From positions 1 through 38,370 of the forward strand of contig PEVT01000018.1 in assembly GCA_002780175.1 (NCBI GenBank): 38,370 bases of DNA, given 5' to 3'. Shown piece by piece: positions 3,803 to 21,053 of the stretch; position 1 is the first letter of the stretch; every line of letters begins with the position of its first letter. This DNA comes from Candidatus Moranbacteria bacterium CG06_land_8_20_14_3_00_40_12. Lineage in GTDB: Bacteria > Patescibacteriota > Minisyncoccia > Moranbacterales > UBA2206. Made by a program: the position numbers and the translations under genes. Below the pieces are notes generated by a model, which searched no databases, was not told the origin of the DNA, and saw only the letters and a list, made by a program, of their open reading frames with translations.

Positions 3803-4363
3803 TTAAAACTTTGTTCCCCTAAATTGGCTTCTTTGCTGATAAAGTCTTTCCGTAAAGCCGCCTTGATTCAGAAAATCTTCCGAGAGTTTTTGGATTTGGC
3901 GGTCGAGGAGATAATTGGTCTGATGGATGAGACAGATGAGCAGGTTGGCGAAACTTTCTTGATTGGACGCATACGACATATAGGTCGAATTTGACTTATT
4001 TTTCACATAGGCGAGCTTGCGAATCTCTTTCACTTCGACCGAATTTTTGTCCCAAAGTTTCAATTTATTCTGCCGTAAAAAATCTTCGTAATCCAAAAGC
4101 AATTCTTCCAAACTCGCCCGCGCCACATTGGTCAATTTAATTTCCGTTTTTTTGGAAGTGGCCGCGGCCTTGCTGCCTTCGGCGATGTTCTGTCGGCCGG
4201 AACGCGCCGCCTGTTCCATTTGATCCTTGGTGCGACTTTTGAAATCAATATGTTTCTGGCAAAACTCGATGGTAAAATCATAAACCAGAGTCGCCATTTT
4301 GAAAGATTCCAACTGGCGGTAACCGCCGTGAGTGAAGGTGAGATTTTGGTTTTGGTTTTCCAT
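3803..4363 (-). CDS. Four-helix-bundle protein (23S rRNA intervening-sequence protein family) with a suffix domain
   Basis: Diagnostic segments are YRQLESFKMATLVYDFTIEF...QMEQAARSGRQNIAEGS...LTNVARASLEELLLDYEDFL. I prefer the ATG at 4363. The ORF-track start at 4402 is a TTG inside a 9-bp repeat tract. Confidence 0.7.
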   Translation of the reverse strand: MENQNQNLTFTHGGYRQLESFKMATLVYDFTIEFCQKHIDFKSRTKDQMEQAARSGRQNIAEGSKAAATSKKTEIKLTNVARASLEELLLDYEDFLRQNKLKLWDKNSVEVKEIRKLAYVKNKSNSTYMSYASNQESFANLLICLIHQTNYLLDRQIQKLSEDFLNQGGFTERLYQQRSQFRGTKF

Positions 4364-4370
4364 TTTTTTG

Positions 4371-4448
4371 ATTGGACAAATCAGATTGGACGAATCCGAC
4401 AAGTTGGACTAATTGGACATATTTGTCCTATTGGTCAAATCCGTCCTA
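4371..4448. repeat. Tract of about 8 degenerate 9-bp-periodic TTGGAC/GTCC units
   Basis: attggacaa..attggacgaa tccgacaag ttggactaa ttggacata tttgtccta ttggtcaaa tccgtccta, read directly from the sequence. Confidence 0.6.
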
Positions 4449-6574: not shown

Positions 6575-6695
6575 CCCCCTTTGTAAAAGGGGGCTGGGGG
6601 GATTTTTATTCCATTGTTTTTACAAATCCCTCCCCGCTTCGCTCGCCTCGCTAAAGCTTTGGCGGAGCGGGCGGGACTCCCTTTTCTAAAGGGAG
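6575..6695. repeat. Short (non-coding) copy of the KGG-hairpin element family
   Basis: CCCCCTTTgtAAAAGGGGG (6575-6593), GGGGGATTTTT, an AT filler, AAATCCCTCC, a GC-rich middle hairpin, and CTCCCTTTtctAAAGGGAG (6677-6695). In reverse orientation it aligns with the dus insert at 13147-13236. Confidence 0.7.
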
Positions 6696-8570: not shown

Positions 8571-8668
8571 TCCTAGTTTAAGCAATTTCTATAAGCCTGT
8601 CAAGGGCCACCGCTTTAGCTTTTCTTCGCCGAAAAACAGAAGTTGCGCTTCTGCAAAATATACTCCTT

Positions 8669-8764
8669 GTCATTGCGAGAGAGCGTAGCGACCGTGGCAA
8701 TCTAAATAATAATTAATTAGATTGCTTCGCGGAGTTTATCCGCCTTCGGCGGGCTCGCAATGAC
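8669..8764. repeat. 96-nt palindromic element, family GTCATTGCGAG ... CTCGCAATGAC (copy 1)
   Basis: Terminal inverted arms are GTCATTGCGAG/CTCGCAATGAC, with inner arms GGCAATCTAA/TTAGATTGC. The 40-nt run TTAGATTGCTTCGCGGAGTTTATCCGCCTTCGGCGGGCTC plus the following GCAA is identical to copy 2 at 17613-17711. Confidence 0.8.
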
Positions 8765-8770
8765 ATATTT

Positions 8771-8801
8771 TAAAAAAATCCGCCTTTTGGGCGGATTTTT
8801 A
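8771..8801 (-). terminator. Rho-independent terminator of the lipoprotein gene
   Basis: AAAAAAATCCGCC-ttttg-GGCGGATTTTTATTTT. On the minus strand a T-run follows the stem. Confidence 0.7.
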
Positions 8802-8810
8802 TTTTCTGGC

Positions 8811-9464
8811 TTATAAACCGACGCCTTCCGGAATTTCCGGCATTTCCCCGCCGCCCGGAATTTTTATATCCTTAAAGTTATCCTGCATCTTTTTTATATT
8901 TTCCATTTGAACTTTCATCTGCTCGCACTGATCGGCAAACACGACTCCGGAAGGCAACGAGAAATCTATCGAAGCCACCGGCTGGCAATTAGCTTCGGGT
9001 GCGTCATCAAAAGCGTCCTCCCCCAAATCTTCCACTGACGGCAAATCTCTTTCTTCTCTCTTGGCCTCTTTTTCAGGAAAAATATCTTTGAGTCCTTCCA
9101 TGCATTTTATCGATATTTTTGTTCCAGTCTGGTTTTCTTCCGACCAGTTATACATCAGATCTTCGCCGTCAAAAAGGGAATAGCTTTTCTTGCCATCAAC
9201 GATTGTTTCTCCGCGGTATTTTTTGCCTTCCGTCCAAACTTTGGAAATGAATTTCTCTTTTCCGATTTCCATCTCGTAAGTGCATTCCATTTTTTGGCTC
9301 AAACCCATAGCGTCTTTAATGGAATTGACCACTTTGGATCCGGCGGACTCTTCCTTGTTTAGCCGGTTTGCGCCTCCATCTTGGCCGGTTTCCGATTTTT
9401 TTCCGCAACCGGAAAAAACCAGGACCACGGCAGTTAAAATTAACAGATAACTAATTTTTTTCAT
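8811..9464 (-). CDS. Putative lipoprotein (217 aa)
   Basis: Signal peptide with a lipobox, MKKISYLLILTAVVLVFSGC. The mature part is acidic and has no recognisable family. Confidence 0.7.
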   Translation of the reverse strand: MKKISYLLILTAVVLVFSGCGKKSETGQDGGANRLNKEESAGSKVVNSIKDAMGLSQKMECTYEMEIGKEKFISKVWTEGKKYRGETIVDGKKSYSLFDGEDLMYNWSEENQTGTKISIKCMEGLKDIFPEKEAKREERDLPSVEDLGEDAFDDAPEANCQPVASIDFSLPSGVVFADQCEQMKVQMENIKKMQDNFKDIKIPGGGEMPEIPEGVGL

Positions 9465-9560
9465 TTGTTTATAATTATTACTTATATCTAGAATAAATTA
9501 TATCAAAAAGAAGAAAAAATAAAAAGAGCCGGATATTCTAAAACTTTATAACTTTATAAA

Positions 9561-9794
9561 CTATTCTACCGGGTCATATCCCCCGTCATTCCAGGGATGG
9601 CAGCGGCTGATTCTTTTCAGCCCCAGCCAGCTTCCTTTTAAAACTCCGTATCTGTCGATGGCTTCATAAGTATACTGGCTGCAAGTCGGATGAAATCGGC
9701 AAAGCCTTTCCCCATAAAAAAACGATAACATTCCATGATCGAGGGAAAAAGTCTTTTGGTAGAATTTAATCAGAAACAAAGCCGCTTTTTTCAT
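9561..9794 (-). CDS. yidD: Membrane protein insertion efficiency factor YidD
   Basis: [10 protein letters not shown]...[34 protein letters not shown] is the YidD signature. The ATG at 9794 gives 77 aa. The longer track ORF (to 10133) runs through a repeat and overlaps corA. Confidence 0.85.
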
Positions 9795-9896
9795 AACTTT
9801 GATTAATTTTAACGCGAAGCAGATCTTTTTGTCAAAAAATCCTTTTACTGATAGAATAAAAGGCATGACCATATAAAATATTTGAGCATCTTCATT

Positions 9897-9960
9897 GTCA
9901 TTCCCGCGAAAGCCTTGCTTGCCGACAGGCAGGCGGGAATCCAGTAAATTAATTAATTTC
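9897..9960. repeat. Half-element of the GTCATTCCCG / GGGAATCCAGTAAAT family with an embedded GCAGGCAGG-type palindrome
   Basis: GTCATTCCCGCgaaagCCTTGCTTGCCGACAGGCAGGCGGGAATCCAGTAAATTAATTAATTTC, with hairpin ATTCCCGC...GCGGGAAT. Confidence 0.55.
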
Positions 9961-9993
9961 TGACAGATTATTTTAAAATATAAACATAAATAT

Positions 9994-10902
9994 ATGCAAG
10001 AAGTCCAATCGGAAAAAATAACCTGGATTAATTTTGAATCTCCCGGCGCGGATGATGTCCTATATCTGAAGAAAAATTTCGACCTGCACCCCCTGGTTCT
10101 GGAAGAATTTTCCACCCCCACTATCCGGCCCAAAGCCGCCGAATACGAAACCTGCCTTTATCTCACCATTCATATTCCGCTTTTTGATTTGGAATCGCGA
10201 ACCACTTATCCGGGAGAAATAGACATTGTAATGAATAAAAATACTCTGATTACCTCTCACACCAAGAAAATTCCCCAACTGGCTGATTTTTTTAATGAAC
10301 TAAAAACCGACCCCGCCAAAAGAGAACTCTACATGAATGAATCCCCGGGCGCCCTGCTGCGCTTCGTCATTGAAATGCTTTTTGAATCCTGCTTTCCCAA
10401 ACTGGATCATATTTCGGAAAAACTGGATTATATCGAAAAAGAAATTTTTGCCGGCCACGAAAAAGAAATGGTTTTTGAATTGTCTTTGGTTAAAAGAGAC
10501 ATTCTCAATTTCCGCCGCACCATGAAACCGCAGCGATCGGTTTTGGAGTCTTTGATAAAAACCGACTACCGTTTTATCGAGCCGGAACTTAAGCCTTATT
10601 TTCAAGATTTAATCGGCACCAATATCCGCATCTGGAATAACCTGGAAAGCACCAAGGAAACCATCGAATCATTGGAAGCCACCAATAATTCCCTGCTTTC
10701 CAACAAGCTGGATATGACGATGAAAGTTTTAACCCTCTTTTCGGCTATTATGCTTCCGCTCACGGTTTATTCCAATATTTTGGCTATGAGCGCGGAAATT
10801 CCTTTTGGCCGGAACCCTCACGGCTTCTGGATTCATTTAAGCATTATGCTTTTTATTTCACTTTTCACGATGACTATTTTTAAAATTAAAAAATGGCTCT
10901 AG
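9994..10902 (+). CDS. CorA-like divalent-metal transporter with a non-canonical AMS in place of GMN
   Basis: CorA architecture: a soluble N-domain, a long helical stalk and two C-terminal TM helices ([26 protein letters not shown] ... [16 protein letters not shown]). The signature position reads A-M-S. Confidence 0.75.
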
Positions 10903-12397: not shown

Positions 12398-12868
12398 TCT
12401 CCCTTTTATAAAGGGAGATGTCCCGGAGGGACAGAAGGATTTTTATAATGTAATGCGATTATATTACAAACCGCATCTAAAAGATAACTCTCAAAAATTA
12501 AGAAAGACGATGACAGAATCAGAGGTTATCTTATGGAATAAGATTAGAAGAAAACAACTAAAAAATTTGCAATTCAATAGGCAAAAACCACTAGGAAAAT
12601 ATGTCGTTGATTTTTATTGCCCATTAAAAAAATTAGTTATTGAAATAGACGGCGGGCAACATTATGATAACGGGAAAATTACAAAAAAAGACCTAGAAAG
12701 AGAAAAATTTATTAAAGAAATACTTGGCTTAAAAATTGTCAGATTTACCAATATAGAAATAAAACAAAATCTAGCAAGCGTGATAGATAAAATATTGGAA
12801 ACATTAAAATAAAAATCCCCGTGAATACTGCGCCCGCTCGCATCCACTCCCCCTTTTTCAAAGGGGGA
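12398..12868 (+). mobile_element. Hairpin-bounded cassette carrying a DUF559 nuclease gene (candidate autonomous member of the KGG-hairpin element family)
   Basis: Left hairpin TCTCCCTTttataAAGGGAGA (12398-12418), GTCCCggaGGGAC (12420-12432), GGATTTTT (12437-12444), the ORF, AAAAATCCCC (12811-12820) and right hairpin TCCCCCTTTttcAAAGGGGGA (12848-12868). The short copies at 6575-6695 and 13147-13236 have the same end modules. Mobility is inferred, not shown. Confidence 0.45.
12453..12812 (+). CDS. DUF559 endonuclease-domain protein (Vsr-like PD-(D/E)XK fold)
   Basis: MTESEVILWNKIRRKQL...FNRQKPLGKYVVDFYCPLKKLVIEIDGGQHY...REKFIKEILGLKIVRFTNIEI is the classic DUF559 pattern. Confidence 0.85.
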   Translation: MRLYYKPHLKDNSQKLRKTMTESEVILWNKIRRKQLKNLQFNRQKPLGKYVVDFYCPLKKLVIEIDGGQHYDNGKITKKDLEREKFIKEILGLKIVRFTNIEIKQNLASVIDKILETLK

Positions 12869-12881
12869 AATTTATTATCTT

Positions 12882-14009
12882 ATGAAAAATTTTTGGCAAA
12901 AATTAAAAAAGCCAATTTTAGCTCTGGCTCCGATGGCCGGCATTACCGACAGCGCTTTTCGCTTGATTTGTCGGCGTTATGGCACGGATGTCGTTTATAG
13001 CGAAATGGCTTCGGCAAGCGCGCTTTACTACAAGCCGAAAAAAACTTTGGAATTATTAAAATTTAATCGGAAAGAACGGCCGTATGTCGTCCAACTTTTC
13101 GGAAAAAATCCCGAACATTTCGCCAAAGCAGCGAGAATTCTAGATTCTCTCCCTTTAGAAAAGGGAGAGTTGGAGAGGGATTTTCATCCAAAATTAAAAC
13201 AAAAATCCCCCTTAATCCCCCTTTTCCAAAGGGGGAAAATTTATAGGCCCGACGGCCTTGATATCAATTTCGGCTGCCCGGCCAAAAAAGTTTTTAATCA
13301 CGGTTCCGGCTGCGCTTTGATGTTGGATATCAAATTGACCCGGGAAATTATTGAAGCGGTTTTAAGGAACACTTCCCTGCCTGTTTCCATTAAAATCCGC
13401 GCCGGCGTCAAAAAACAAACTGCCTTGAATTTTATCAAGAAACTTAAAGATCTTCCCTTTCAAGCCATTATGCTCCATGGCCGGACTTATGAAGGCGGTT
13501 TTGGCGGTCCGGTAGATTTTGCTTTGGCGCAAAAAATCAAACAAAGCGTTCCGGAAAAAATCGTTCTCTTAAACGGCGGCATTACCGATCCCAAGCAAGC
13601 TCGAGAAATTTTAGACCAATACCCGCTAATTGACGGTTTAGGTATCGGCCGCGGAGTTTTGGGCCGGCCGTGGTTGTTTGAGGAAATCAAAAATCTCTTA
13701 CAAAATCCATCTCTCCTTATCAAGGAGAGATGTCGCGAAGCGACAGAGAGGTATAATTTCGAAAAAAATCACCCTGTTAAATCCCCACGAAGCGAGGTCG
13801 TCCGCCCACTGGCGGACGAATTTAACAGGGTAAAGAAAGTCATTATGGAACACGCTAAATTAATTTATAAAAACAAGCCGCGAACCGGGGCTTTGGAAAT
13901 CAGAAAACACTTGGCCTGGTATGTCCGCGGATTTCCCGGCGCTTCCGAAATGAGAAAGAAACTCGTGCGAACCGAAAGCTTGGAAGAAATAAAGCGAATT
14001 TTGAAATAA
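12882..14009 (+). CDS. dus: tRNA-dihydrouridine synthase (Dus) with two in-frame repeat-derived insertions
   Basis: LAPMAGITDSAFR, VQLFG, DINFGCPAKKV, IKIR, HGRT and GIGRG..GRPWLF are Dus TIM-barrel motifs. Two extra segments (about aa 90-122 and about aa 277-318) are encoded by palindromic repeat DNA. Confidence 0.9.
   Translation: MKNFWQKLKKPILALAPMAGITDSAFRLICRRYGTDVVYSEMASASALYYKPKKTLELLKFNRKERPYVVQLFGKNPEHFAKAARILDSLPLEKGELERDFHPKLKQKSPLIPLFQRGKIYRPDGLDINFGCPAKKVFNHGSGCALMLDIKLTREIIEAVLRNTSLPVSIKIRAGVKKQTALNFIKKLKDLPFQAIMLHGRTYEGGFGGPVDFALAQKIKQSVPEKIVLLNGGITDPKQAREILDQYPLIDGLGIGRGVLGRPWLFEEIKNLLQNPSLLIKERCREATERYNFEKNHPVKSPRSEVVRPLADEFNRVKKVIMEHAKLIYKNKPRTGALEIRKHLAWYVRGFPGASEMRKKLVRTESLEEIKRILK
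13147..13236. repeat. KGG-hairpin element copy inside dus (insert 1, in frame)
   Basis: CTCTCCCTTtagaaAAGGGAGAG (13147-13169), GGAGAGGGATTTT, an AT filler, AAAAATCCCCC and TCCCCCTTTTccaAAAGGGGGA (13216-13236). It is translated as LPLEKGELERDFHPKLKQKSPLIPLFQRGKIY. Confidence 0.7.
13710..13830. repeat. Second palindromic element inside dus (insert 2, in frame)
   Basis: TCTCTCCTTatcAAGGAGAGA (13710-13730) and TGTCGCgaaGCGACA (13731-13745) parallel the left end of the DUF559 cassette. A long hairpin ACCCTGTTAAAT...ATTTAACAGGGT (13771-13830) follows, with inner CGTCCGCCcactGGCGGACG. Confidence 0.6.
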
Positions 14010-16538: not shown

Positions 16539-16666
16539 CCGCCTTAGCGTAGTAAAGCGTCAAAAATTCGAGACGATGCAAGCGTAAAAAAACTTCTCTT
16601 TTAGCGTAAGCGTTTTGAGAAGTTTTAGCGAGCGAGTCCGAATTTATCGCTTTACGAGCTGGGCGG
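16539..16666. repeat. 128-nt nested palindrome (family AGCGTAAAAAA ... TTTTAGCGAGCGAG), copy 1
   Basis: Outer arms are CCGCCTTAGCGTAGTAAAGCG/CGCTTTACGAGCTGGGCGG, and the inner hairpin is AAAACTTCTC...GAGAAGTTTT. The right arm supplies the last codons and the stop of the 315-aa gene. Confidence 0.65.
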
Positions 16667-17599
16667 CCTTTTTTCTTTTCTACCGCTTTTCTTTTGGGCA
16701 AAAGAAAAGCGGGAAAGAATTAATTCTGACTTTTCCTTCTTGGATAATCGCTTAATCCGATATTCTTCTTTAGAGGCCGCTGACCGATTACGGAATTTTT
16801 TGGCATAAACTAATCTAACTGGTCGGCGGGCGGCAGTATACTTAGAGCCCAGCTGGGAAGAATTATGCTCGCGTATCCTTCTTATTAAATCCACTGTAAT
16901 ACCCGTATATAAAGTCTTATCTCGACATTTGAGAATATACAAATAATAACGCTTATTCTTACCGCTACTGGGATTATTTTTGCCTTTCTCCGGCTTCCAT
17001 TCTGTTATCTTCCCCGCTTCAATTTCAATTGGTTCGGCTTTTCGCAAATTCCGGATTTGTTTCTGATTTAAAATTGGAAAGTGCTTGACTTCGACCAGAT
17101 ATTCCGGGATATAATCAATTTCTTCTTTCGTCGTCATCCAGCCCAATTTATCAAAACGTTTGAGATTGACCGCCGGCGAAAAGCTCCGTAAATTTTTCCG
17201 GCCCCGGTTGTCCAGATATTCATGAAAATAACTCATTGCCAGTTCCCGCAAAGAATTATAAATCGGCTCCCGATAACGCAACGCAGCGTGATTAGTCTTG
17301 GAAATAGCGCCCCATCGGCCGTCTTTTTGGTAAACCGCGACCACATGGTCGAAATCATTTTTATTAGCCGTCAAGTCCAGCACCAGCGGCGGATAGCCCT
17401 GGACGCGCAAAGCCAAAGCGGCCAGCGCCGCGCCTTCCGTGCAATGGCAAGTCTTTTTTTCCAACACTGACATCGGCGATAAATTAGTTTCGCCTTTTTT
17501 TTCAAAATTCATCGGCATCCGGTTAAGAAAATTTTGAATTTTAGCCGGAGTGTTTAATTGCCTTAAAATTTTCAGTTCTTTTTTTTCTAATCCAAACAT
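16652..17599 (-). CDS. Fusion protein: N-terminal transglutaminase-like Cys-His domain plus C-terminal GIY-YIG nuclease domain
   Basis: C-terminal aa 217-293, RYYLYILKCRDKTLYTGITVDLIRRIREHN...RPVRLVY...EEYRIKRLSKKEK, is the GIY-YIG (UPF0213-like) pattern. The N-terminal CHCTEGAALAALAL...DFDHVVAVYQKDGRWGAISKTN resembles a papain/transglutaminase-fold Cys...His core. The family assignment is from memory and has lower certainty. Confidence 0.7.
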   Translation of the reverse strand: MFGLEKKELKILRQLNTPAKIQNFLNRMPMNFEKKGETNLSPMSVLEKKTCHCTEGAALAALALRVQGYPPLVLDLTANKNDFDHVVAVYQKDGRWGAISKTNHAALRYREPIYNSLRELAMSYFHEYLDNRGRKNLRSFSPAVNLKRFDKLGWMTTKEEIDYIPEYLVEVKHFPILNQKQIRNLRKAEPIEIEAGKITEWKPEKGKNNPSSGKNKRYYLYILKCRDKTLYTGITVDLIRRIREHNSSQLGSKYTAARRPVRLVYAKKFRNRSAASKEEYRIKRLSKKEKSELILSRFSFAQKKSGRKEKRPPSS

Positions 17600-17612
17600 T
17601 TTTTATCCAATT

Positions 17613-17711
17613 GTCATTGCGAGCCCTGAAAGAGCGTGGCAATCTAATTAATATTTAAATTTATTAGATTGCTTCGCGGAGTTTATCCGCCTTCGGCGGG
17701 CTCGCAACGAC
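17613..17711. repeat. 99-nt palindromic element, family GTCATTGCGAG ... CTCGCAACGAC (copy 2)
   Basis: It has the same termini as 8669-8764 and matches it at 46 of 47 nt in the right half. It fills the spacer between mnmA and the start of the GIY-YIG fusion gene. Confidence 0.8.
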
Positions 17712-17746
17712 ATAAAATAAAACTTTTTTAATATAATAATGAAAAA

Positions 17747-19580: not shown

Positions 19581-21053
19581 ATGGAAAAAATAAAAAGATC
19601 GATCTTTTTTTGGACGCTCACCCTTCTTTTTTTTGTTATAGCGCCTTCCCTGGTTTTATACGCCCGGGGATACCGCATTGATTTTCAAAAAGGTGTTTTT
19701 GTCCATAGCGGAACAATTACGCTTAAAACTAATCCGGAAAACGCGCAAATCGCGCTTAATGGCAAATTGGAAAAAGCCACTGCCAGTCGCATTAATAATT
19801 CTCTGAATATCTCCGGTTTAATACCGCGGGAATATCGCTTAACCGTTTCCGCTCCCGGTTTTAATGATTGGAATAAAAAAACCGAGGTGCACAGCGGAGT
19901 TTCCAGTGAATTTTGGAATATTCTGCTAACCCGAAAAGAATATGCCAAAACCGCCTATGCCGCCGGTCTGGTAGAAAAATTTTTTATTTCGCCTGAAGAT
20001 AAATTGATTGTTTTGGAAAATTCTCAAAATGAAACCGTATTTATCAATATCCTGGATATAAAAAACGACGCAATCACGCAAACTTATTCTTTCCCGGATT
20101 GGCAGTTTATCCCGGAAGAACGGAAAGAAAATATCGAATGGTCCCCCAAGGAAGATTATCTGCTCATTCCCCTGCAAAAAAAGACGCTTCTTGAAAATAA
20201 AGCCGAAATGGTTTTTTCTTATTTTGTGATTAATCCGGAAAAAGAAACATTTTTTAATCTTAATGAATTTTTAGAAAAAGAAAACCTTAAAAACGCCCGC
20301 TGGCATCCCGAGGATAAAGATTATATCTTTTTTCTTTCGGAAACCGATCTTTTCCGCGCCAGTATTACTGACAAAAACGACCTGACTTTAATCGATCGGG
20401 ATGTTTCCAGTTTTGATTTGGCTGAAAACGGCGTTTATTATTCCCAGCTTCCCAACGAACTGGTCTTCCGGAAAGATCTTGACGGAATAAGCGGAAAAAA
20501 TCAGATAACTTTTGCCTCCCCTAAAAAAAACCGGAGTTCAAATGAAAAATTAATTGTTTATGACGAAGCCCGAATCGCCTTTTTAGACAAGGATAAAAAT
20601 CTTTTTCTTTTTAACAAGGGCCAACATCAAGAATATCTCCAAAAAATCGGCAGCCCGGTGGAAGGAATCCAATTTTCGGATGATGGAAAAAAATTGCTTT
20701 TTTGGAACACCAACGAAATTTCCGTTCATTTCTTAAGAGATTGGAATGTTCAACCGTTTCGCATTGAAAATGAAACTAAAGAAATTACCCGCTACGCGGA
20801 AAAAATCAGCAATGTCCAATGGTTCAAAGATTATGAGCATGTTGTTTTTAATGTCGGATCTTTTGTCAAAATAATCGAACTGGATAATCGCGATTATCGG
20901 ATTTGCAATGATTTGCTGACAACCGGAACTAATAATTCTCAAATAGTTTATAACCACTATCTGGAAAAACTGTTTTTTTCCGATCCAGCGAAGGAAAACG
21001 GTTTCTTCTCTTCGATTGATATTCCGGAAAAAACCAATTTCCTGGGCTTATAG
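19581..21053 (+). CDS. Membrane-anchored PEGA-domain protein with a probable beta-propeller C-terminal region (490 aa)
   Basis: An N-terminal TM helix (IFFWTLTLLFFVIAPSLVLY) is followed by a PEGA-like module (ITLKTNPENAQIALNG...YRLTVSAPGFNDWNKKTEV). The remainder is rich in repeated beta-strand-like segments. Confidence 0.6.
   Translation: MEKIKRSIFFWTLTLLFFVIAPSLVLYARGYRIDFQKGVFVHSGTITLKTNPENAQIALNGKLEKATASRINNSLNISGLIPREYRLTVSAPGFNDWNKKTEVHSGVSSEFWNILLTRKEYAKTAYAAGLVEKFFISPEDKLIVLENSQNETVFINILDIKNDAITQTYSFPDWQFIPEERKENIEWSPKEDYLLIPLQKKTLLENKAEMVFSYFVINPEKETFFNLNEFLEKENLKNARWHPEDKDYIFFLSETDLFRASITDKNDLTLIDRDVSSFDLAENGVYYSQLPNELVFRKDLDGISGKNQITFASPKKNRSSNEKLIVYDEARIAFLDKDKNLFLFNKGQHQEYLQKIGSPVEGIQFSDDGKKLLFWNTNEISVHFLRDWNVQPFRIENETKEITRYAEKISNVQWFKDYEHVVFNVGSFVKIIELDNRDYRICNDLLTTGTNNSQIVYNHYLEKLFFSDPAKENGFFSSIDIPEKTNFLGL

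Follow-up and report, generated by a model that had tools for sequence, protein, structure and literature searches.

The dus gene of Candidatus Moranbacteria bacterium CG06_land_8_20_14_3_00_40_12, which encodes a DusB-like tRNA-dihydrouridine synthase, contains in frame a 90-nt palindromic element that is probably a non-autonomous miniature of a hairpin-bounded selfish element: a deletion derivative of a longer form encoding a DUF559 nuclease, tolerated by the host enzyme as a disordered loop. The gene of this groundwater bacterium lies on contig PEVT01000018.1, of which the 38,370-nt stretch analyzed here (positions 1 to 38,370) is referred to as the window. In-frame “protein-coding palindromes” of this kind have hitherto been treated largely as a Rickettsia curiosity and are now found in a bacterium of the Candidate Phyla Radiation (CPR). 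Two such inserts are present in a single dus gene, and at least six insert types have reached one and the same loop of Dus proteins. A preliminary description of the window, made from the sequence alone, had likened the insertion to the in-frame behaviour of Rickettsia palindromic elements (RPEs); empty sites in orthologues, further copies of the element, selection on the enzyme core, and a loop in the AlphaFold model all agree with that proposal.

The 375-amino-acid (aa) product of the dus open reading frame (ORF) matches Pfam family PF01207 (Dus, E 1e-59), and the match is split into two stretches. Aligned with the solved structures of the T. maritima enzyme (1vhn) and E. coli DusB (6ei9), residues 89–125 of the query stand opposite just 5 residues. 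The stretch from QLFG to DINFGCP comprises 63 aa in the window protein, whereas among 78 species-representative Dus loci of GTDB in which the site could be read, 66 have 32–33 aa; measured against a canonical 33 aa, the net insertion therefore amounts to 30 codons, located between helix α3 and the DINFGCP strand. The preliminary description had counted about 33 extra codons between AARILDS and the active-site strand, an insertion that the orthologue alignment upholds at this smaller size: close orthologues are uninterrupted, and nothing both homologous and non-palindromic occupies the position in unrelated Dus proteins. The insert DNA has the hairpins and boxes previously assigned to a short copy of a hairpin-bounded element (Table 1), and further copies occur in the window and elsewhere. 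Folded as single-stranded DNA, the insert forms three hairpins that coincide with these stems (−23.6 kcal/mol, z −3.1). The dus frame is open throughout the insert with no stop codon introduced, as had been claimed, and the catalytic Cys132 motif is intact. As encoded, the peptides over the insert junctions of the window protein are ILDSLPLEK and GKIYRPDGLDINFGCPAK; an example of an uninterrupted dus sequence with an empty site is ATTGTTTCAGAAAAAATTAAGCCC. Ten metagenome contigs from several samples (L001–L010) carry the identical insert; none of them varies in it or has an empty allele, and it is thus not an assembly artefact. Over 1.8 kb these contigs differ by two single-nucleotide polymorphisms, neither of them inside the dus insert: one at 12493 (Q14R of the DUF559 gene described below) and one at 12859 (in the loop of hairpin B of the long copy). 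No joint skipping 13147–13236 was present among the metagenome contigs of this population.

The insert belongs to a repeat family. The window holds six perfect pyrimidine-to-purine hairpins, with 0.06 expected from shuffles, and these pair up as three elements: the dus copy, an intergenic short copy, and a long copy upstream of dus (Table 1). No further copies were found in ~14 kb of additional contig sequence of this genome (~52 kb in total), and contigs of this genome end at hairpins (12849/12877 and 13207/13231). The product of the DUF559 gene in the long copy matches PF04480 (E 1.7e-33) and has PDB 3hrl as its closest solved structure (E 4e-17); JGI annotation names its homologues “very-short-patch-repair endonuclease”. 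Seven further DUF559 homologues from unrelated contigs, 43–76% identical, each show the element layout, so that with the window gene all 8 distinct genes, 43–100% identical to one another, are bracketed in a sample that represents one subfamily, picked by similarity to the window gene. Upstream of these genes lies a hairpin, sometimes a second small hairpin (TGTCCCgaaGGGACA), and a purine box ending in ATTT a few bases ahead of the start codon; downstream, a box beginning with AAAT and continuing in pyrimidines, often over the stop codon, is followed by a hairpin. The DUF559 genes examined sit inside operons, such as between atpF and atpH, between two pyruvate:ferredoxin oxidoreductase (POR) subunit genes, or among glycosyltransferase genes, and placement between operon genes is the behaviour of selfish inserts. 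An alignment of 22 complete elements revealed conserved ends, referred to below as end modules, and one common architecture. In a rule-based scan of metagenome and genome loci, short elements measured 69–121 nt, plus one of 188 nt, and long elements 447–493 nt, every one of the latter enclosing a DUF559 ORF. The scan also returned one 206-nt module pair outside both size classes. Three larger module pairs in viral loci enclose unrelated genes, and 1.3 Mb of Moranbacterial dus loci contain no DUF559 gene.

What links the short to the long form is the DNA retained between the end modules. The central remnant and right box of the dus copy match the last DUF559 codons (ATTAAAAtAAAAATCCCC): positions 12800–12826 and 13190–13216 form a repeat family (D7) with 85% identity, reading AACATTAAAATAAAAATCCCC in the DUF559 gene and AAAATTAAAACAAAAATCCCC in dus, and the DUF559 stop codon TAA (12810–12812) aligns codon for codon with CAA (Q107) in the dus frame. 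In another genome, one long and two short copies lie inside 3.4 kb of an ATP synthase operon (L221), where both short copies retain “...AAGATAAAAATCCCCC”, the end of the DUF559 ORF of that same genome; the same kind of central remnant is present in L217. In two further dus genes filled with the insert (L211 and L020), the retained stretch resembles the DUF559 5′ leader and start codon. As different short copies hold different ORF remnants, we read them as independent internal deletions and infer that the short form arises from the long form in this manner, much like MITEs, the miniature inverted-repeat transposable elements.

Table 1. Positions in the window of the dus gene, its two inserts, and the related elements.
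Feature	Positions	Strand	Description
dus (tRNA-dihydrouridine synthase, DusB-like)	12882–14009	+	375 aa, ORF intact, two in-frame palindromic inserts
Short hairpin-bounded element	13147–13236	+	90 nt, in frame; encodes S89 to ~Y121 (SLPLEKGELERDFHPKLKQKSPLIPLFQRGKIY), net +30 codons
Hairpin A	13147–13169		CTCTCCCTTT aga AAAGGGAGAG; stem 10 bp, loop 3 nt
Left box	13173–13184		GAGAGGGATTTT; after TTG; mirror image of the hairpin A purine arm; pairs with right box
Central remnant	13185–13200	+	CATCCAAAATTAAAAC; 16 nt between the two boxes
Right box	13201–13211		AAAAATCCCCC; followed by TTAA, then hairpin B
Hairpin B	13216–13236		TCCCCCTTT tcc AAAGGGGGA; stem 9 bp, loop 3 nt
Second in-frame palindromic dus insert	13708–13831	+	composite, ~30 extra aa, barrel-to-helical-domain linker after EIKNLLQNP
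Long element copy	12398–12868	+	471 nt, 330 bp upstream, between cysS and dus
Long copy, hairpin A	12398–12418		followed by small hairpin, 12419–12433
Long copy, left box	12437–12444		GGATTTTT; followed by the DUF559 ORF
DUF559 (Vsr-like PD-(D/E)XK) endonuclease gene	12453–12812	+	119 aa, cargo of the long element; stop codon overlaps right box
Long copy, right box	12811–12820		AAAAATCCCC; followed by a 27-nt spacer
Long copy, hairpin B	12848–12868		
Intergenic short copy	6575–6695		121 nt, dnaK/grpE gap; hairpin, GGGGGGATTTTT, AAATCCCTCCCC, GC-rich spacer, second hairpin

The box adjoining each hairpin is a mirror image, not a complement, of the neighboring hairpin arm, as observed at 13160–13184 of the window and in the aligned ends. 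Examples are AAAGGGAGAG ttg GAGAGGGA, AAGGGAGG tta GGAGGGA, and ATCTCCCTC tag CTCCCTCTTT, and the mirror box co-varies with the hairpin arm across sequence variants. Judged by sequence, a hairpin with its mirror box is laid out in the manner of DNA that forms intramolecular triplexes (H-DNA type).

In the enzyme hosting the insert, the catalytic and flavin mononucleotide (FMN)-site motifs are invariant, with D127-I-N-F-G-C132-P present in 32 orthologues, and the Dus core is under purifying selection, its dN/dS ranging from 0.05 to 0.13 (295 core codons, against five relatives). When filled alleles are compared, the insert has a dN of 0.34–0.37 and a dS of 0.36–0.38, a ratio of ~1 estimated from just ~31 codons; in the core of these genes, dS has reached saturation (at least 2.1). 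The hairpin arms and loops are nucleotide-identical across hosts with Dus genes 66–69% identical at the nucleotide level. Together with the ratio, this identity indicates that the insert peptide is not constrained at the protein level; the DNA of the element ends is either constrained or young. An AlphaFold model built from 32 sequences has a mean predicted local distance difference test (pLDDT) score of 74 and superposes at TM 0.85 on 1vhn and 0.80 on DusB. The barrel is well modelled, and residues 95–117 and 276–306 fall below a pLDDT of 50 and are modelled with no structure. The first insert lies between helix 77–89 and strand 125–129, and the 10-residue blocks flanking it average 87–94; the structure prediction called for at the outset thus places it as a low-confidence, surface-type loop between well-modelled core elements, compatible with the fold as predicted by AlphaFold. 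In TIM barrels, α-to-β loops lie opposite the catalytic face, and by this general topology the first insert, an α-to-β loop, should be located on the face opposite the active site.

From these data we propose the following scheme. The full-length form of ~450–490 bp would consist of hairpin A, a purine box with ATTT as its last bases, a DUF559 gene for 100–120 aa, a box that starts with AAAT and continues in pyrimidines, and hairpin B. The dus copy would have lost nearly all of the nuclease ORF, keeping its last codons with the stop TAA turned into CAA. With a length that is a multiple of three and no stop in the dus frame, the element would be translated as ~30 extra residues, which would be placed in the α3-to-β4 loop of the TIM barrel, facing away from FMN and the catalytic Cys, and would probably be tolerated as a floppy, disordered surface loop. 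Short elements have 0–4 of their six frames open, typically 1–3, and in-frame survival is therefore not improbable. Spread would be driven by the DUF559 nuclease, or by recombination that it provokes, and filled alleles would move between related lineages by homologous recombination. Insertion hot spots would arise because only permissive loops survive selection, and the insert peptide would have no function of its own.

Comparison of filled and empty alleles bears on how the element spreads. The insert type occurs in four Dus proteins, those of the window, P0014, P0018 (locus L020), and P0019 (locus L211), which are scattered over the Dus tree with an empty sister for each; the closest orthologues, 75–81% identical, have an empty site. 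Three filled alleles were compared at the DNA level (window, L020, and L211; P0014 is represented by its protein), and these have identical hairpins and loops at one codon, with centres that have diverged and indels that are multiples of three. The copy that L058 carries at this dus site also belongs to the family but differs from these three in its loops and is read in another frame. In other Moranbacteria, at least five further, unrelated types of palindromic insert occupy the α3-to-β4 loop of Dus, and the loop is a hot spot for coding palindromes. Further inserts at this first site were observed in L013, L021, L025, L028, L037, L047, and L058 as well as in P0024, P0037, P0046, P0067, and P0070; the perfect palindrome TGTAGAGACGCATCGCGATGCGTCTCTACA is located there in L013, and CCCGCCCGC...GCGGGCGGG in L025 and L047.

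Two loci of a single species, L211 (filled) and L222 (empty), are 97–100% identical outside a divergent tract of ~2 kb, which begins at the end of cysS, stops ~100 nt beyond the insert (locus coordinates ~8650–10500), and includes the 5′ third of dus. By this pattern of identity, the tract is a recombination import. Adjoining the insert, L211 shares 90% identity with the window allele and only 58% with its own sister, with gene-wide values of 66% and 90%, respectively. The identities near the insert suggest that filled alleles travel with short tracts by homologous recombination. The tract also swaps intergenic genes, a 180-aa ORF on one side of the comparison against 123- and 233-aa ORFs on the other.

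Several observations weigh against the scheme. No target-site duplication is recognizable in the flanks of the 22 aligned elements, which are A/T-rich (left ...TT, right A/G-A...) with no consistent direct repeat, and no transposition or excision event was seen in the data examined. A literature search gave no demonstrated transposase or homing activity for DUF559. Among the matches listed, a DUF559 gene lies nearby in 1 of 120 metagenome and 0 of 120 viral module loci, and 1.07 Mb of module-bearing viral loci contain none; that most modules lack an adjoining nuclease fits MITE-like amplification but also a secondary invasion by DUF559. Three filled dus alleles are represented by DNA; their hairpin loops are identical and lie at one codon, and they may represent a single old insertion with conserved hairpins, not repeated events. 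The L211/L222 tract replaces an upstream gene too, and the recombination was thus not necessarily caused by the element. To these points adds the small number of codons behind the dN/dS ratio of the insert.

The numerical excess of modules over DUF559 genes also speaks for a reversed relationship, in which the short palindromic element is primary, DUF559 is a homing-endonuclease-like invader of its central loop, and the copy in dus represents a target that was healed or never invaded. The space between the boxes is filled exactly by the DUF559 ORF in several copies, with its stop codon overlapping the right box, and homing-endonuclease ORFs often overlap their host element. Unrelated small genes are likewise located between two modules in viral loci, and among homing endonucleases, Vsr-like PD-(D/E)XK nucleases form an established family (PMC2677866, PMC3239194). 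We nevertheless consider this relationship unlikely. Short copies of three independent genomes (window, both L221 copies, L211/L020) retain either the end and stop of the ORF or its 5′ leader and start, for which deletion is the simpler explanation, and different short copies retain different parts of the ORF, as independent deletions would.

It is far less probable still that the insert was selected in its own right, whether as a functional Dus extension particular to this lineage or as a regulatory structure in the mRNA, for instance in tRNA contact or translation pausing, with only a secondary resemblance to intergenic repeats. The perfect conservation of the hairpin arms between diverged hosts and the repeated acquisition of inserts by the same Dus loop are what such a role would have in its favour, as is the stable RNA fold of the segment, a single long imperfect hairpin (−41 kcal/mol, z −3.06). 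Yet the insert has a dN/dS of ~1, its peptide is modelled as disordered, and the closest relatives do without it. The site holds at least six unrelated insert sequence types, the same DNA also occurs between genes and around a nuclease gene, and general TIM-barrel topology puts the loop opposite the active-site face. As to other identities of the segment, riboswitch, intron, and small RNA were rejected, since Rfam yielded only sub-threshold microRNA-precursor matches typical of a generic long hairpin, and a terminator was rejected because the two dus-internal hairpins lack a T tail on the sense strand.

Mobile elements within genes often secure tolerance by being removed or bypassed. Absence of the insert from the mature product through an intron, an intein, or ribosomal bypassing is highly improbable here, even though T4-like phages offer a precedent in a mobile element that encodes translational bypass (bioRxiv 10.1101/2022.08.31.505936). 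Rfam returned no family at threshold and no intron model, with sub-threshold generic microRNA-hairpin matches only; Pfam shows Dus alone, with no Hint/intein domain; and a stop-free 90 nt in frame makes removal unnecessary. Filled alleles of other species keep the frame through multiple-of-three indels, which suggests selection on translation through the insert. A decaying dus pseudogene or an assembly chimera at a repeat can practically be dismissed: groundwater assemblies do break at hairpins and the community contains the module in many copies, but the identical 1.8-kb region is present in the 10 metagenome contigs from several samples, contigs cross both junctions, orthologous filled alleles exist in other species, and the intact ORF, invariant catalytic motifs, and low core dN/dS counter the pseudogene alternative raised in the preliminary description.

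The end module extends well beyond this lineage. We searched for it with a pattern of AAATCCCC, up to 30 nt, and CCCCCTTTnnnAAAGGGGG, which has 24 specified bases and for which we roughly estimate less than one match by chance across the metagenome collection. It occurs in at least 120 metagenome loci and at least 120 IMG/VR viral loci; the pattern fixes part of the sequence, and these counts do not imply homology among all matches. In groundwater runs X1, X2, and X5, assembler word depth over 13154–13275 is 800–1600 versus ~10 in the flanks, and in run X3 it is 200–350 versus ~7; ~100 contigs per groundwater run contain the ~40-nt right-end module with 2–4 mismatches. A complete short element lies between genes on plasmid NZ_CP090068.1 of Acinetobacter sp. 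SH20PTE14 (20687–20774, L348), and plasmids of Nostoc, Pseudanabaena, and Allocoleopsis contain partial module matches.

In-frame placement recurs among these occurrences. In metagenome loci, 23 of 156 modules are located inside an ORF that reaches at least 60 aa on both sides. Ten in-ORF cases were checked with Pfam and are ordinary enzymes, with domains that flank the module or are split by it: O-methyltransferase, polyprenyl synthase (IspA), CarA, GuaA, QueA, HisF, RsmE, WecB, GH57, and an ATP-citrate-lyase-like protein. Another Dus, recognized by sequence motifs without a Pfam scan, has the module at its site 2. On plasmid NZ_CP040275.1 of Nostoc sp. C052 (L349), the annotated type I polyketide synthase (PKS) WP_179070242.1 reads through a two-hairpin module (...ITPLNPPFPRGEKEKSSSLPFTRGGLGWG...). 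A HMMER search of all representatives for the peptide gave 4 matches (P0241–P0244), which are spurious ORFs over tandem module arrays. Such arrays lie in L226 at 1250–1500 and 1860–2100 and are translated as repeat “proteins”, e.g., KSPSIPLFQRGK, with LPPLKKGDGRGI occurring five times in P0242. Tentatively, and as a possibility that falls short of an even chance, the matches could reflect a hitherto unrecognised cross-phylum class of ~450-bp elements, each with one DUF559 gene for 100–120 aa between triplex-capable ends. The class would have MITE-like derivatives in intergenic DNA, phages, and plasmids and, since these are often open in 1–4 of six frames, in permissive loops of housekeeping enzymes of many phyla, with DUF559 as mobiliser; if real, the class would represent a general bacterial counterpart of RPEs.

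Among known systems, RPEs are the closest in behaviour, being short palindromic repeats that occur between genes and in frame within unrelated housekeeping genes (Ogata et al. 2000, 2002, summarised in PMC10969869). In both cases the ORF stays open, a surface position is predicted for the added peptide, and presence among relatives is patchy; here, the in-frame palindrome is found in dus of the window, L020, L211, and L058, in the ten further enzymes, and in the Nostoc PKS. The present element differs in its host, a Moranbacterium of the CPR, for which RPE membership by descent is not expected; related modules exist in cyanobacteria, on Acinetobacter plasmids, and in viral contigs. Its sequence is also other and shorter (69–121 nt vs ~100–150), its architecture is one of two pyrimidine/purine hairpins with mirror-image boxes, and it has a coding full-length relative, the DUF559 element. 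To our knowledge, no autonomous parent of RPEs is known. The element behaves in an RPE-like manner but is probably outside the RPE family.

Bacterial MITEs offer a second comparison, and ERIC/RU elements include intragenic in-frame copies (Delihas 2007, PMC2759123). As in ERIC/RU, Correia, and Anabaena MITEs, the short elements described here are small and non-coding, have inverted-repeat ends and many copies, form occasional in-frame fusions with host ORFs, and are apparently derived from a longer coding element with common ends. The ~52 kb of this genome contain three elements of the family, short and long. The short elements lack a transposase ORF and have left and right ends that are inverted images of each other and common to the short and the 447–493-nt DUF559 forms. 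Unlike in MITEs, the putative parent encodes a ~100–120-aa DUF559 nuclease, the only cargo of long forms in metagenome and genome loci, and not a DDE/HUH transposase; moreover, the ends are hairpins themselves, not plain terminal inverted repeats, and no target-site duplication was recognized in their flanks. REP/BIME elements with their RAYT partners (REPtrons) are 20–40 nt long with a GTAG or CGTC head, extragenic, and associated with a Y1 (HUH) transposase (PMC3733652). Both systems have short hairpin repeats that flank one small gene and greatly outnumber it, but the ends here begin with YCTCCCTTT and have no GTAG/CGTC head, the nuclease is DUF559, and intragenic copies occur. Identity with REP/RAYT was rejected on the absent head and on a flanked gene that is not a Y1 transposase.

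The nuclease itself has its counterpart in Vsr-like homing endonucleases of the I-Bth0305I family (PMC2677866, PMC3239194), which share with the present system a small Vsr-type PD-(D/E)XK nuclease in a selfish insert and a co-conversion-like pattern near the insert. The PF04480 match predicts a Vsr-type catalytic domain for the window gene. Those enzymes have extra DNA-binding domains, and their genes are located within group I introns or inteins or next to split genes, whereas the DUF559 gene is free-standing, intergenic, and bounded by hairpin modules, and is likened to them by its Pfam match. A MITE family of Ca. Thiomargarita, with a proposed PD-(D/E)XK (YhgA/Rpn-like) parent (PMC4853749), is a precedent for a nuclease parent with no classical transposase and likewise includes a MITE inside a metabolic gene. 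In that case, however, the nuclease is PDDEXK_2, not DUF559, the element has 10-bp direct and 19-bp inverted repeats, and the gene is disrupted rather than read through. Taken together, the homing endonucleases and the Thiomargarita MITE set a precedent for a nuclease-driven route. The literature searched describes neither this element nor DUF559 as the cargo of a mobile element, and it reports no RPE-like inserts from the CPR, which matches the remark in the preliminary description that no account of the element type or lineage was known, and DUF559 parentage of palindromic elements appears undescribed.

The end module is not lineage-specific: metagenomes of very diverse origin contain it, as do viral contigs, plasmids of Acinetobacter, and a PKS from a cyanobacterium. 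Short selfish palindromes may thus generally give rise to loop insertions, and to variation in length among orthologues, in uncultivated bacteria. Consistent bracketing by end modules provides DUF559, a large “domain of unknown function” family, with a concrete, testable role, and makes the DUF559 element a candidate for the parent hitherto lacking for RPE-like repeats. The copy on a plasmid of a cultured Acinetobacter makes experiments feasible. In practice, inserts of this kind split Pfam matches, break assemblies at hairpins, and give rise to spurious ORFs from module arrays.

The second palindromic insert of the window dus gene (Table 1) encompasses residues ~277–317, which stand opposite ~10 residues in the solved Dus structures. 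Its first part (13708–13751) is composed of a hairpin (CATCTCTCCTTatcAAGGAGAGATG), a small hairpin (TGTCGCgaaGCGACA), and a GAGAGG box, an architecture like that of the left end of the DUF559 element; the encoded peptide SLLIKERCREATERY is common to P0008, P0009, P0021, P0025, L011, L015, and L023. The second part (13770–13831) is a different inverted-repeat element, CACCCTGTTAAAT ... ATTTAACAGGGT around a hairpin at 13798–13819, also present in P0014, P0022, P0024, and P0059.

Elsewhere in the window, a second palindromic repeat family is represented at 17606–17712 and 8680–8775 (TGTCATTGCGAGCCC ... GCAATCTAAT ... ATTAGATTGC ... GGGCTCGCAAYGACA), with a 65-nt core that is 92% identical between the two copies. 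One copy abuts the start of a 315-aa ORF with a GIY-YIG domain (16652–17599, minus strand), and this ORF with its adjoining repeat may be another pairing of nuclease and palindrome. A gene for a four-helix-bundle protein of the 23S_rRNA_IVP family (PF05635) is located at 3803–4402 on the minus strand, between dnaK and a DUF3467 gene; in L213 and L214, a 23S_rRNA_IVP gene lies upstream of the DUF559 gene, with one POR subunit gene between them.

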